In this document: one piece after another, positions 233-31,769 of the stretch
How the letters are laid out: each line of letters starts with the position of its first letter
Numbering within the stretch: position 1 is the first letter of the stretch
From: an uncultured Candidatus Saccharibacteria bacterium
GTDB lineage: Bacteria > Patescibacteriota > Saccharimonadia > Saccharimonadales > UBA10212
DNA: 57,741 bases
Direction: 5' to 3'
NCBI GenBank assembly: GCA_964625245.1
Contig: CAZVAN010000001.1
Coordinates: forward strand, 1-57,741
Notes under the pieces: generated by a model
What the model saw: the letters and a program-made list of their open reading frames with translations, nothing else
The model's database searches: none
What the model was told of the DNA's origin: nothing
Program-made: the position numbers and the translations under genes

Positions 233-492
233 AGAATCTGATTTAAAACTTCAGACTTGAACTGACGTTGATTTGCACTACCTAGTTTTCAATGAACATT
301 TCAGGGAGGTTACGCTCAAATGCCAACCGTTATGTCTTATCCAGTGTCTCAGAAATATGGAGACACGTTAAAAGAGCACCCTAAAATCTACATATCATGG
401 TAGCGCATAGTGGATCGCTTTGCAACGCCTTATATTACGATACCCGCGTTCGGCTCGGGCGCTGTACAGCTCTGCTGATGACTTCAGAAAAC

Positions 493-14622: not shown

Positions 14623-14970
14623 ATGCGAGTTAAACGAGGCGTAGCCTCACACAAACGACACAACAAGATTCGTCGCCAGACGAAGGGGATGACGAAAGCC
14701 CATCGTTCTAGCGTAAAACGTGGTAAACAGGCTGTAACACGCTCATTGGCCTTTTCTTACAGAGATAGGCGGAACCGCAAGCGTACCTTCCGCAGTCTTT
14801 GGAATGCCAGAATTAATGCTGCCGCTCGTATGCACGAAACCACCTACAGTCATTTGATTGCCGGCATGAAAAAGTCTGGTATTAACCTAGATAGAAAAGT
14901 ATTGGCTGAACTAGCAGTCAATGAACCAGTAGCTTTCGAAGTCATCTTAAAAACCGCCATTAAAAAATAG
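14623..14970 (+). CDS. rplT: 50S ribosomal protein L20
   Basis: 115-aa ORF MRVKRGVASHKRHNKIRRQTKGM...; completes the conserved infC-rpmI-rplT order. Confidence 0.95.
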   Translation: MRVKRGVASHKRHNKIRRQTKGMTKAHRSSVKRGKQAVTRSLAFSYRDRRNRKRTFRSLWNARINAAARMHETTYSHLIAGMKKSGINLDRKVLAELAVNEPVAFEVILKTAIKK

Positions 14971-15049
14971 AGTTCTGGGCGCCAAGGCATTTTTCATTTT
15001 TAATGAGTTGTATCTGTTAAATCATAGTTTTTATGCTATAATTACTCCT

Positions 15050-15407
15050 AGCCCAGATTATCGGCTGATTGCCTGCTCTTTTAGTAGCAGGAGGAAAGTC
15101 CGGGCAGTATAGGGTAAAGGCAGTTGCTAACGGCAACCGGGGGTAACCCCAGGGAAAGTGCCACAGAAACGACACAACCATCCGCCGAGAAAGGCGGGTT
15201 GGAACTGGTGAAACGAGTGGGGTAAAAGCCCACAGTCCGTCTGGGTGACTTGGCGGAGAGGTAAACCCTGCCTACTGCAAGGAGATGTGTCGCAACAAGA
15301 GCTACCCGCTCGCGGCGCATCATAAGAACCGCTCGATCCTGCCGGCAACGGCAAGACTAGATAGATAATCAGCTAAAACAGAACCCGGCTTACGGATTTT
15401 CTGGGCT
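15050..15407 (+). ncRNA. rnpB: RNase P RNA (bacterial type)
   Basis: GAGGAAAGTCCGGGC at 15091-15105 and ACAGAACCCGGCTTAC at 15378-15393 (P4 strands). P1 pairs GCCCAGA (15051-15057) with TCTGGGC (15400-15406). An extended -10 TGCTATAAT sits at 15034-15042. Confidence 0.92.
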
Positions 15408-15427
15408 ACATGAAAAAACGCTTCTGC

Positions 15428-21913: not shown

Positions 21914-22081
21914 ATATAGCCGTTAACACATCGGCAAAACTCAACCTACGTAGGAGTATATATATACTAGCCGGAAAATGCTAGTACTTTTTTGGTCTCT
22001 TATCCACAGTTTTAGTTTTTGGATTTTTATATCATATATGAGTATTTATTAGATACCATATTTGAGATAGTATAATTAGTC

Positions 22082-22207
22082 TTGGTCTTAAGACTTTTCA
22101 AAATTCCGCAGTGCAGTATTTTGAAAAGTCTAGAGGGGCAACCTAGCCGAGGCTGCAAGTGATTTCTGAATAAGAAATTACGAAGGCCGACGCCTGGGTT
22201 GCGACGA
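22082..22207 (+). ncRNA. Structured leader/ncRNA element directly 5' of tRNA-Val (copy A of a two-copy motif)
   Basis: TATAAT at 22071-22076. A 14-bp hairpin AGACTTTTCAAAAT/ATTTTGAAAAGTCT carries the loop TCCGCAGTGCAGT. A long-range stem GCAACC/GGTTGC encloses hairpin TGATTTC/GAAATTA. It ends with GACGA abutting the tRNA. Homologous to 28852-28982. Confidence 0.5.
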
Positions 22208-22284
22208 GGGCACATAGCTCAGCTGGCTAGAGCGCCACATTGACGTTGTGGATGTCGGGGGTTCAAATCCCTCTGTGCCCACCA
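22208..22284 (+). tRNA. tRNA-Val (anticodon GAC), CCA encoded
   Basis: Acceptor GGGCACA/TGTGCCC, D arm GCTC-AGCTGGCTA-GAGC, anticodon arm CCACA-TTGACGT-TGTGG, T arm GGGGG-TTCAAAT-CCCTC, 3' ACCA. Confidence 0.92.
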
Positions 22285-22316
22285 TATAAAAAACCTACTT
22301 TGTAGGTTTTTTATAT
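22285..22316. terminator. Bidirectional intrinsic terminator (shared by tRNA-Val and tgt)
   Basis: Palindrome ATATAAAAAACCTAC-TTT-GTAGGTTTTTTATAT. Confidence 0.7.
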
Positions 22317-28814: not shown

Positions 28815-28851
28815 GCCTATATTGTAACCAAAGATGGCTCGAATAGTTAGA

Positions 28852-28982
28852 TTGGTCTTGTTTACAATTTTACAAATTTCCGCACTGCAGTAATTCGTAA
28901 AATTGAGAGAAGGAGGCGACTTAGGGACCGAAAGTAAGTTAAAATACTAACTTACGGAGGTCGATGCGTCGACTCCGACGAA
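28852..28982 (+). ncRNA. Structured leader/ncRNA element directly 5' of tRNA-Arg (copy B)
   Basis: Candidate promoter TTGTAA-16 nt-TAGTTA (28822-28849). Hairpin CAATTTTACAAA/TTCGTAAAATTG carries the loop TTTCCGCACTGCAGTAA. Long-range stem GGAGGCGAC/GTCGACTCC encloses hairpin GTAAGTTA/TAACTTAC. It ends with GACGAA abutting the tRNA. Confidence 0.5.
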
Positions 28983-29057
28983 GCCCCTGTAGTTCAATGG
29001 ATAAAATAGCTCCGTCCTAAGGAGAAGCTAGAGGTTCGAATCCTCTCGGGGGCACCA
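28983..29057 (+). tRNA. tRNA-Arg (anticodon CCT), CCA encoded
   Basis: Acceptor GCCCCTG/CGGGGGC, anticodon arm (G)CTCC-GTCCTAA-GGAG(A), T arm AGAGG-TTCGAAT-CCTCT, 3' ACCA. The D arm is atypical, so isotype confidence is moderate. Confidence 0.8.
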
Positions 29058-29659: not shown

Positions 29660-30577
29660 ATGAGCTACGAACAAGCCACTGCGGAATTTCTGGAATACCT
29701 AGAACTGGAGCAAAATCGCTCACCAAAGACCATACAAAATTATAGTCATTACCTTATCCGTCTTAGTGATTTTGCCGGTGATATAAAGGTAGAGGATATA
29801 AATCCGGAATTGATTAGAAAATGGCGTTTATGGCTAAACCGCCTGGGCACTAATACTAGCGATGAGCTTTCAAAGACCACACAAAACTACCACCTAATTG
29901 CGCTAAGAAGTTTCCTTAGATTTTGTATTAAGAGAGGTTACACTGCCCTACCCCCCGACCAGATAGAACTAGCACGGACTACCCGCCCCCAGGTGACTTT
30001 TTTAACGCCGGAGGAGCTTGAGCGCCTAGCTTCCCAGCCCAATACGTCCAACCCTACTGGTCTACGCGACCGGGCCATTATAGAACTTTTGTTTTCCAGC
30101 GGACTACGCGTTAGTGAGCTGGTGGGGCTAGATCGTGACCATATTAACCTGAAGCGACGCGAGTTTATGGTACGTGGCAAAGGCCAAAAAGATCGGCCGA
30201 TCTTTATCAGCGCCGAGGCAGCGGGTTGGATAGACCAGTATCTGCAAAAACGCCAAGACAATACCAAGCCCCTTTTTATTAGATACAGTGGGTCTAAAAA
30301 AGTAGATTTATCGGGTAATTTTCACCGTTTGACGGCCCGTAGCGTGCAGCGAATGGTGGCCAGATACGCTCGGCTAGCCGGAATTACCAAACACGTTAGC
30401 CCGCATACGCTGCGGCATTCTTTTGCGACGGACCTTTTGATGAACGGGGCTGACCTAAGGAGTGTGCAGGCCATGCTGGGCCATAGTAACATCGCTACCA
30501 CTCAAATTTATACTCATGTTACAGATCCCCACTTAAAAGCCGTTCATGAAAAGTTCCACCGAACAAAAAATAATTAA
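29660..30577 (+). CDS. Tyrosine recombinase, XerC/XerD family
   Basis: 305-aa ORF with an N-terminal SAM-like core-binding domain, catalytic R...HxLRH (SPHTLRHSFAT) ...GH, and the Tyr in TTQIYTHV. Confidence 0.85.
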   Translation: MSYEQATAEFLEYLELEQNRSPKTIQNYSHYLIRLSDFAGDIKVEDINPELIRKWRLWLNRLGTNTSDELSKTTQNYHLIALRSFLRFCIKRGYTALPPDQIELARTTRPQVTFLTPEELERLASQPNTSNPTGLRDRAIIELLFSSGLRVSELVGLDRDHINLKRREFMVRGKGQKDRPIFISAEAAGWIDQYLQKRQDNTKPLFIRYSGSKKVDLSGNFHRLTARSVQRMVARYARLAGITKHVSPHTLRHSFATDLLMNGADLRSVQAMLGHSNIATTQIYTHVTDPHLKAVHEKFHRTKNN

Positions 30578-30698
30578 ATAAGCCAAAAACATAACTAATT
30601 TTATTTGACTGTCAGCCGTTATAGAATTTGCTGTAGCGATTCTTCCCTCGCAAAAGCTTTAGCTAGTACCCCAACAACCAGGAAAGGTGGGTGGATCA

Positions 30699-31769
30699 AT
30701 GTTCGGCAAGACCAAGCTGCAAACATGGGCAGCTTTGGGCGGCTGTGTCTGCGCCGCCACCGGGTTTGGAGCCCAGAATTCCAAGAGTGCCCCGGCCAAC
30801 GAATCAGGAGCGACAACCAGCTGTTCCGATTACAACTTGATCGACGTACACGGTTCAGGTGCAGCCTCGTACACCGAAAGTCCGGCCGGGAGCGTCCTGG
30901 CAGAGCAGCTCCAGATGAGTTTGTCGCCGAAGCAAGTGGAGGTGGATACCGTCCCGTTTGAAGCGGCCGGTGGCCCAATTACCCTGGCGGGAGCGGCTTT
31001 GAAGTTGCCGCGCGGCTACCACCAGTCAGTAGTGAAAATCAAGAACTGGCTGCGGGAATGGCTTCAGGCTCTACCCGGGGACTGCCCGAACGCCAAGGTC
31101 ATCCTGGTCGGCTACAGCCAGGGGGCACAGGCGGTAGGCGACGTCTATCAGGAGCGAGCTTGGAAGCAAGTGGTCGGGGTTGTATTGTTCGGAGACCCCT
31201 ACTACAACCACGCTGACAGTTCAGACCGCTTCGGGCTCAACTTCCAGCCGAAGCAGAGGATCAAGACCAAGCTGGACGGAGCCCTGGTGGGGCGCAAACC
31301 AAGGGATGCCTTCAACAGCTCCCTGGTGCAGAGCTACTGCCACCAAGAGGACTTCGTATGCCAGGCTCCCCTGAGCAAGTACGAGCTGGTTCGATACGGC
31401 AAGAGCCAGCACAACAACTACACCGGGTTCGGGGAGCCGGAGAAGGCGGCCAAGTACCTGATGGGCCTAATTGGTTCAAGCGGCAGCCCAAAACCGTCGC
31501 CCAAACCACTGGGCAAATGGCCCACCAACCGTCACGATGGCCCACCGGCTCTCTTCTTGATGCTGGGAGCCAACTTCATCAGTCCAGATTGGTCGAGCTG
31601 TGACCCGGCTTACTGCATCGTTGGGTCCGATAACACGGTCTACGTGTTTTCGGTCGACCAGGGCATCAACGAAAAGGGGACAATCCCTCTTGGGTACACA
31701 GACCCCGCGGAGGGACTGGGGGAACTAAAAGTTCCAAAACCGGACATCGACAAGCTGCTGGCTCCGTGA
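30699..31769 (+). CDS. Cutinase-family serine esterase, predicted lipoprotein, high-GC (foreign composition)
   Basis: The ATG at 30699 follows AGGAAAGGTGGG. The signal peptide has lipobox LGGC. Cutinase nucleophile motif GYSQGAQ is present. G/C-ending codons run throughout, with shadow ORFs on both strands. Confidence 0.75.
   Translation: MFGKTKLQTWAALGGCVCAATGFGAQNSKSAPANESGATTSCSDYNLIDVHGSGAASYTESPAGSVLAEQLQMSLSPKQVEVDTVPFEAAGGPITLAGAALKLPRGYHQSVVKIKNWLREWLQALPGDCPNAKVILVGYSQGAQAVGDVYQERAWKQVVGVVLFGDPYYNHADSSDRFGLNFQPKQRIKTKLDGALVGRKPRDAFNSSLVQSYCHQEDFVCQAPLSKYELVRYGKSQHNNYTGFGEPEKAAKYLMGLIGSSGSPKPSPKPLGKWPTNRHDGPPALFLMLGANFISPDWSSCDPAYCIVGSDNTVYVFSVDQGINEKGTIPLGYTDPAEGLGELKVPKPDIDKLLAP

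Follow-up and report, generated by a model that had tools for sequence, protein, structure and literature searches.

Bacterial tRNA 5' leaders are generally regarded as short, disposable spacers. Functional by-products of tRNA precursor processing are known, such as the 3'ETS-leuZ sRNA sponge of E. coli, MALAT1/mascRNA and the plant dicistronic tRNA-snoRNA genes; in the case of MALAT1/mascRNA, RNase P generates the 3' end of the upstream RNA by cutting at a tRNA-like structure. RNase P performs best on leaders that are single-stranded at least from -1 to -4 (PMC7897497). T-boxes are located upstream of aminoacyl-tRNA synthetase or amino-acid genes and end in a terminator/antiterminator; they recognise tRNA in trans by means of a specifier codon and a UGGN bulge. 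Rickettsia palindromic elements and small structured MITE-like repeats, finally, are non-coding, foldable sequences of 100-150 nt that are scattered harmlessly in reduced genomes.

The DNA analysed here (a stretch of 57.7 kb, referred to as the window) is assigned to a soil Candidatus Saccharimonadales (TM7, CPR), as inferred from the protein names of homologues. It harbours six tRNA genes, the RNase P RNA and the 5' end of the 16S rRNA. A cutinase-family gene at 30687-31769 has a G+C content of 58-60%, compared to 42-50% in its neighbours, and was possibly acquired horizontally; overlapping ORFs rich in Arg, present on both strands at 30605-30978, are probably spurious. Immediately 5' of tRNA-Arg(CCT) lies a non-coding block of ~120 nt (copy B), and a similar block precedes tRNA-Val(GAC) (copy A); the coding-potential check found no conserved ORF in the leader. 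A single fold is common to both copies (Table 1): in the 5' part, hairpin P1, which has 14-15 bp and carries a small extension at its apex, is followed by a short AGAG junction; the 3' part is a stem of three tiers (P2-P3-P4) that does not branch and whose internal loops are G/A-rich; and a single-stranded tail of 5-6 nt, GACGA(N), reaches tRNA +1. No pseudoknot is predicted for this combination of a hairpin and an unbranched rod. Folded alone, copy A has a minimum free energy (MFE) of -53.9 kcal/mol (z -7.2) and copy B of -40.6 kcal/mol (z -3.7), and for neither copy does any shuffle fold as well.

Table 1. Features of the two leader copies, their transcription units and the RNase P RNA in the window; pairing and promoter assignments are predictions.
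Feature	Coordinates	Strand	Basis and remarks
RNase P RNA, bacterial class A	15053..15408	+	Rfam RF00010, 235 bits; role in cutting the leader inferred
-10 box TATAAT, tRNA-Val unit, copy A	22071..22076	+	Alignment with L035, L036, L012; flanks kept in leaderless relatives
Copy A, entire element	22088..22207	+
Copy A P1 hairpin (AGACUUUUCAAAAU / AUUUUGAAAAGUCU, apical block UCCGCAGUGCAGU)	22091..22131	+	Fold and family alignment
Copy A junction J1/2 AGAGGG	22132..22137	+	Family consensus
Copy A P2 (GCAACCUAG/CUGGGUUGC), 2-bp P2b, P3 (GGCU/GGCC), P4 (GUGAUUUCU/AGAAAUUAC)	22138..22202	+	Fold and family alignment
Copy A tail GACGA, ends at tRNA +1	22203..22207	+	Sequence, family consensus and folding
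tRNA-Val(GAC)	22208..22284	+	ARAGORN, Rfam; followed by an intrinsic-terminator-like hairpin, ~22289-22315
Candidate -10 box TAGATT, tRNA-Arg unit, copy B	28848..28853	+	Aligns with TAGAAT of orthologous L035, L038, L039; inferred, no experiment
Copy B, entire element	28862..28982	+
Copy B P1 hairpin (CAAUUUUACAAAUU / AAUUCGUAAAAUUG, apical block UCCGCACUGCAGU)	28865..28905	+	MFE fold
Copy B junction J1/2 AGAGAA	28906..28911	+	Consensus of 9 non-redundant copies; AGA invariant in family
Copy B three-tier domain P2-P3-P4, G/A-rich internal loops	28912..28976	+	Fold, RNAalifold and family alignment
Copy B P2 (GGAG-G-CGAC / GUCG-A-CUCC), P3 (GACC/GGUC), P4 hairpin (GUAAGUUA/UAACUUAC)	within 28912..28976	+
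Copy B tail GACGAA, ends at tRNA +1	28977..28982	+	Predicted mostly unpaired; GACGA invariant
tRNA-Arg(CCT), CCA encoded	28983..29057	+	ARAGORN; Rfam tRNA model, 52.5 bits

An initial annotation of the window had described two copies of a tRNA-leader element whose stems differ while pairing is maintained. Both copies are present at the places it gave, and the P1 arms and internal hairpins it quoted are correct. The stems do differ between A and B yet stay paired, each copy adopting the same fold, with 13 of 37 pairs compensatory when RNAalifold is given these two copies only. A covariance model run with filters off over the 57.7 kb bore out the statement that only tRNA-Val(GAC) and tRNA-Arg(CCT) carry the element in the window, the Pro, Gly, Thr and Asp tRNAs being without it. 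Other claims hold in part. The interval given for the second copy, 28822-28982, is too long, as the element proper begins at ~28862 and 28822-28861 comprise promoter and spacer. The example of a stem that reads CAAC/GTTG in A and CGAC/GTCG in B does not match the register of the family alignment, in which GCAA-C-CUAG/CUGG-G-UUGC of A stands opposite GGAG-G-CGAC/GUCG-A-CUCC of B; the stem is nonetheless kept by compensatory changes. The P1 loop block UCCGCAsUGCAGU is shared by A and B, but it is not conserved family-wide. The annotation had also favoured a functional RNA fold over a DNA-level repeat, a claim to be checked with RNAalifold and homologues; this check recovered the same helices with abundant compensatory changes, and the claim is supported by seven further independent homologues, which keep the helices via many double-sided substitutions. 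The suggested link to rare-codon isoacceptors fails, because AGG accounts for ~14% of Arg codons and GTY for ~55% of Val codons, and because tRNA-Asp(GTC) carries the element in relatives.

Of the seven additional independent copies, all located on metagenome contigs of related Saccharimonadales, five precede tRNA-Arg(CCT) and two tRNA-Asp(GTC). Loci of relatives were fetched by synteny, via the neighbouring PH-domain protein and tgt, and a metagenome scan for GACGA-N combined with tRNA-Arg(CCT) features returned five loci, of which four (L038, L039, L041 and L042) carry the element. A covariance model built from seven copies found two non-seed copies, both before tRNA-Asp(GTC) (L014, 87 bits; L035, 54 bits), as well as a weak antisense copy in L016; a second model, run later, revealed no further copies in ~190 kb of related DNA. 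All nine intact copies in this DNA are co-oriented with the tRNA and end exactly at tRNA +1. The Arg leader of L037 retains the architecture with an almost wholly different sequence (z -6.9), conservation being limited to AGAG and the tail. Patterns built from the blocks conserved between A and B detected nothing real in GTDB genomes or viral contigs: the pattern combining the P1 loop and the J4/3 block gave 5 genome-contig and 13 viral-contig matches, all by chance and none near a tRNA, and these scans failed because the P1 loop is not conserved family-wide. A P2 consensus pattern gave 15 chance matches on viral contigs, none of which fits the covariance model, and BLAST against phages matched the tRNA part alone. 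The family thus far comprises only ~10 independent sequences, and since four of them were recovered by a pattern requiring the GACGA tail, part of the tail's invariance stems from the search itself. Within the species, the sequences from another sample differ from copy B by one G>U in J1/2 (L006:9833-9953) and from copy A by an extra A in the P1 5' arm near the apical block (L006:16607-16728), i.e. this population variation is confined to unpaired or loop-proximal positions.

RNAalifold applied to an unguided MAFFT alignment of seven copies recovered P1, P2 and P4 with 25 of 33 pairs compensatory. In the model-based alignment of 11 sequences, which are 31-73% identical, 94.3% of cells pair versus 73.5% in shuffles (0/500), and double-sided changes are seen in 32 of 36 pairs; sliding the partner by 1-3 columns as a control brings pairing down to 29-48%. 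By helix, double-sided changes in the family alignment affect 11/14 pairs of P1, 7/8 of P2, 4/4 of P3 and 8/8 of P4. On the tRNA strand 20 G.U pairs are found versus 9 A.C mismatches, and the reverse strand matches only the palindromic P1, not P2-P4. The constraint acts at the RNA level, on the sense strand, and compensatory evolution in place speaks for a functional RNA rather than junk. Besides AGA and GACGA, the family consensus contains no conserved single-stranded seed, so that no target can be proposed. In all likelihood, the element represents a true structured RNA domain of ~115-125 nt that has been maintained in evolution and is encoded between the promoter and the mature tRNA 5' end in certain Saccharimonadales tRNA genes.

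In the Arg and Val copies, 10-20 nt separate P1 from the candidate -10 box upstream, which places P1 within ~0-8 nt of the likely transcription start, the starts being inferred from sequence alone. In the Asp copies and L042 the distance between the -10 box and P1 is somewhat larger, and across all copies it ranges from 10 to 33 nt. A scan limited to the two window leaders detected no terminator-like site inside them. One requirement for a tRNA-punctuated, RNase P-released non-coding RNA, a transcription unit shared with the tRNA, is satisfied as far as the sequence shows: a candidate promoter is located upstream, no terminator intervenes (window leaders), and the junction abuts tRNA +1 in 9/9 intact copies. 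Leader and tRNA folded jointly have an MFE equal to that of both parts added up, fewer than one inter-domain pair is expected in 6/9 copies, the tRNA cloverleaf is kept in most copies, and positions -1 to -6 are predicted to be mostly unpaired. As the domains fold independently and the tail is mostly unpaired, and as RNase P prefers a single-stranded stretch from -1 to -4, the layout looks made for cutting by RNase P; this is an inference. Leader-to-tRNA complementarity was considered and rejected: the loop sequence CUGCAG of copy B could pair with positions 5-10 of tRNA-Arg, with no equivalent in A or L041 and no inter-domain pairing predicted. Pairing of a 5' UGGU with the 3' ACCA end, likewise rejected, is predicted in copy A only. 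Most tRNA genes in the window and in L012, L014, L016, L017, L035 and L037 display a -10 box (TAAACT, TATAAT or TATACT) followed, after 2-4 nt, by (T)CTGTTC, and the native leaders after this pattern are merely ~5-25 nt long.

Occupancy differs among close relatives. At the Val locus the ~125-nt block is absent from L035 and L036 (tgt 82% and 80% identical, respectively), L037 and L012, in all of which the ThrRS terminator and the promoter are conserved up to the -10 box; at the Arg locus L035, L020, L012, L016 and L018 are without the element. The window carries it at Val and Arg and not at Asp, as opposed to L035, which carries it at Asp and not at Val or Arg. The element is dispensable, as close relatives exist without it at Val and Arg. 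Comparison of the Asp sites of L017 (...ctgttccaatac/GGG) and L035 (...ctgttccaaatc, then the element, then GGG) places the insertion at -1/+1, between the old leader and the tRNA. At the Arg locus, copy B and L038 precede orthologous tRNA-Arg(CCT) genes that share a flanking gene and are near-identical; the leaders are 65% identical and every helix is kept. Four different tRNA-Arg acceptor sequences are represented among the lineages with Arg(CCT) copies, and the subtypes of the leader follow these tRNA types. Copies A and B are 65% identical as well; intragenomic copying from B to A was rejected, A being no closer to B than to the copies of other genomes. The 'empty' Arg sites of L035 (TCTACAA/CCAATGA) and L012 (CTACAATTTAGAGTAAC) resemble internal-deletion remnants, which may point to loss rather than gain; the matches are short and the indication is only suggestive. 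Near-identical tRNA-Arg(CCT) genes in L017 (1-70), L018 (295-371) and L040 (762-836) are leaderless and located after ndk, inverted relative to the ndk and PH-domain genes when compared to window 28983-29057. The inversion of this gene relative to its flanks in some close relatives indicates that the locus rearranges locally.

In L016 a degraded copy of 129 nt (14931-15059, minus strand) sits in antisense orientation exactly between the CCA end of tRNA-Thr(CGT) and the +1 of tRNA-Gly(CCC), where the spacer of relatives measures 0-3 nt. It scores 34-37 bits with a fold z of -1.9, and its GACGA tail abuts the tRNA-Thr CCA end. In the window (26215/26216, minus strand) the CCA of tRNA-Thr(CGT) is directly followed by G1 of tRNA-Gly(CCC) with zero spacer; relatives show the same or 1-3 nt. 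A cDNA (retro-insertion) origin of the L016 copy was rejected: the insert includes a discriminator-like TGGTCT, which is upstream of the likely transcription start in B and L038, and DNA-level copying is for this reason at least as likely. Two evolutionary signals coexist: vertical maintenance, seen in the Arg copies, and turnover, seen in the differing occupancy of Val, Arg and Asp and in the Thr/Gly insert.

The preferred reading is that the element is a functional RNA domain that is transcribed together with the tRNA and removed from it by RNase P, the released RNA being the selected product. A probability of ~0.4 is assigned to it, i.e. it leads its competitors without reaching even odds. 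Fold, conservation, tRNA linkage, modularity and patchy distribution are shown; co-transcription, release, stability and a function in trans are inferred. The released RNA could be produced in the following manner: The domain would be transcribed as the 5' part of the pre-tRNA and fold independently into P1 and the P2-P3-P4 rod. The always-unpaired GACGA(N) linker of 5-6 nt to the tRNA would leave the RNase P site accessible. Cleavage at tRNA +1 would then separate the mature tRNA from a discrete leader RNA that begins with a hairpin and terminates in a defined GACGA(N)-3'OH. This RNA, made in step with its tRNA, would be the product under selection and would most likely act via a bound protein or a tertiary interaction, not via a long antisense seed. 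Support for release by RNase P is confined to the accessible linker and the presence of RNase P RNA in the window. Against this reading, the released leader may, in the absence of expression data, simply be degraded, and the element is dispensable and lacks a conserved seed. The occupation of different tRNAs in different genomes does not discriminate, as it suits a mobile or neutral cassette just as well as a functional RNA.

Another possibility is that the element regulates its own tRNA in cis, the leader binding a protein or small ligand or packing onto the acceptor stem via the AGA/GACGA junction and thereby controlling how accessible the RNase P site is, how fast the 5' end matures or how stable the precursor is; it would be the natural counterpart of an engineered RNase P riboswitch. 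The cleavage site is flanked by the invariant AGA (J1/2) and GACGA (-1 to -6), for which RNAalifold suggests a connecting G-C pair that would leave 2-3 free nt before +1; every copy in the window and the related DNA searched is attached to a tRNA, none being free-standing; and leader structure controls RNase P cleavage in designed constructs (PMC7897497). However, the leader is not predicted to pair alternatively with the tRNA, and the tail remains largely unpaired; the G-C pair lacks covariation and is broken in L039 and the L006 variant; the same leader precedes Arg, Val and Asp tRNAs without tRNA-specific change, the AGG-containing junction being unaltered; and no Rfam riboswitch matches at E<=10.

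Less probable is a selfish or formerly mobile cassette at the -1/+1 junction, which would be tolerated since RNase P removes it, much like splicing removes an intron, and which would keep its fold for its own propagation. Patchy occupancy among close relatives (Val and Arg in the window, Asp in L035), empty Val sites with flanks conserved right to the -10 box, the Asp insertion precisely at -1/+1 (L017 versus L035) and the decayed antisense copy exactly in the Thr/Gly junction of L016 favour this explanation. On the other hand, copies within one genome are just 65% identical, which excludes a recent burst; terminal inverted repeats, target duplication and a linked transposase or reverse transcriptase are lacking; the Arg copies seem to descend vertically, with compensatory changes arising in place; the 'empty' Arg sites of L035 and L012 look like internal-deletion remnants; precise insertion could reflect survivorship because these leaders are only 5-20 nt long; and the viral contigs scanned contain no copies. 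A bolder version, still less probable, holds that the cassette moves among tRNA genes via the exact RNase P junction (-1/+1) and is erased from every transcript by RNase P. It would constitute a bacterial 'outron', akin to a mobile intron of tRNA leaders, either still selfish or domesticated as an RNase P-gated control of tRNA supply. Least credible of all is a DNA-level palindromic repeat (REP-, attC- or recombination-site-like) with an incidental RNA fold. P1 is a near-perfect palindrome that scores 25-35 bits on the opposite strand too, and a XerC-like recombinase gene is located nearby (29660-30577); but P1 alone, not P2-P4, is matched by the reverse strand, G.U pairs outnumber A.C mismatches on the sense strand (20 vs 9), orientation relative to the tRNA is fixed in 9/10 copies, and the xerC-like gene is also present in relatives without the element. 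The modular RNA released by RNase P is accordingly ranked above the cis regulator, the tolerated mobile cassette and the DNA-level repeat, in this order; the first three cannot be separated by the present data.

With a covarying domain of ~120 nt at the RNase P site, some pre-tRNAs would contain either a further functional RNA or a means of controlling their maturation, neither of which is, to our knowledge, known in a pre-tRNA leader outside engineered constructs. The RNA biology of the candidate phyla radiation is believed to be little studied, and the element adds a well-supported orphan RNA family to it. Its gain and loss among the tRNA genes of close relatives provide a tractable system for the spread of non-coding cassettes in reduced genomes.

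Rfam 15, searched with 300-nt slices, identified the tRNAs only and nothing over the leaders even at E<=10, and the full-text literature searched contained no description of the element. With T-boxes it shares a long 5'-leader RNA with stacked helices, purine-rich junctions and a functional tie to tRNA. None of the distinguishing T-box features named above is seen: no T-box model matches, the two window leaders lack a terminator-like site, and a T-box-like specifier was rejected, AGG being found in the junction of all copies including those of Val and Asp. The purine-rich junction does not change between the Arg, Val and Asp copies, so that it offers no specifier that would follow the identity of the tRNA. 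No match at E<=10 was obtained for small self-cleaving ribozymes (hammerhead, twister, twister-sister, pistol, hatchet and HDV-like). A riboswitch would require a conserved aptamer and an expression platform with mutually exclusive folds; the element has a conserved fold, for which ligand binding is no more than possible, and neither the tRNA nor the tail is predicted to enter an alternative pairing. In boxA/boxB rRNA leaders, too, a promoter-proximal hairpin is combined with a short motif, and TGGTCTT before P1 (A, B, L038 and L016) resembles the boxA UGCUCUUUUAAC of the window. This reading was rejected: a transcribed UGCUCUUUAACAA-like boxA would be required in all members, and TGGTCTT occurs only in these four and overlaps the predicted discriminator; it is probably upstream of the transcription start because it directly abuts the -10 box in B and L038. 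The boxA-like sequence itself belongs to the 16S rRNA leader (367-378, minus strand) and is followed by a hairpin GUGUCUC...GAGACAC; compared to the Rfam model, the 16S 5' region contains an insertion of ~89 nt near model positions 80-83.

Like the Rickettsia palindromic elements, the leader element is a small, non-coding, foldable insert in a reduced genome. Those elements and MITE-like repeats reside in many kinds of genes and are recognisable by sequence, whereas the element occurs at tRNA 5' ends only, in fixed orientation and with mainly its structure conserved. The criteria for MITEs, IS200-IS605-derived PATEs and REP-like repeats are not met: copies are 31-73% identical, the inverted repeats are internal stems only, and orientation is fixed in 9/10. 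The synthetic RNase P riboswitch (PMC7897497) demonstrates that a structured element directly 5' of a tRNA can decide RNase P cleavage, the single-stranded stretch from -1 to -4 being key; it is an engineered device in which a theophylline aptamer is combined with a sequestor hairpin pairing with the leader, whereas in the natural element the tail is unpaired and no alternative fold is predicted. The by-products of tRNA precursors (3'ETS-leuZ, MALAT1/mascRNA and tRNA-snoRNA transcripts), none of which is homologous, share with the inferred release and function of the element a non-tRNA RNA that is co-transcribed, has an end set by a tRNA-processing nuclease and is a spacer RNA with a separate function. 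The element differs from them in that it is a 5' leader with a covarying two-domain fold and forms a family across several tRNAs and genomes.
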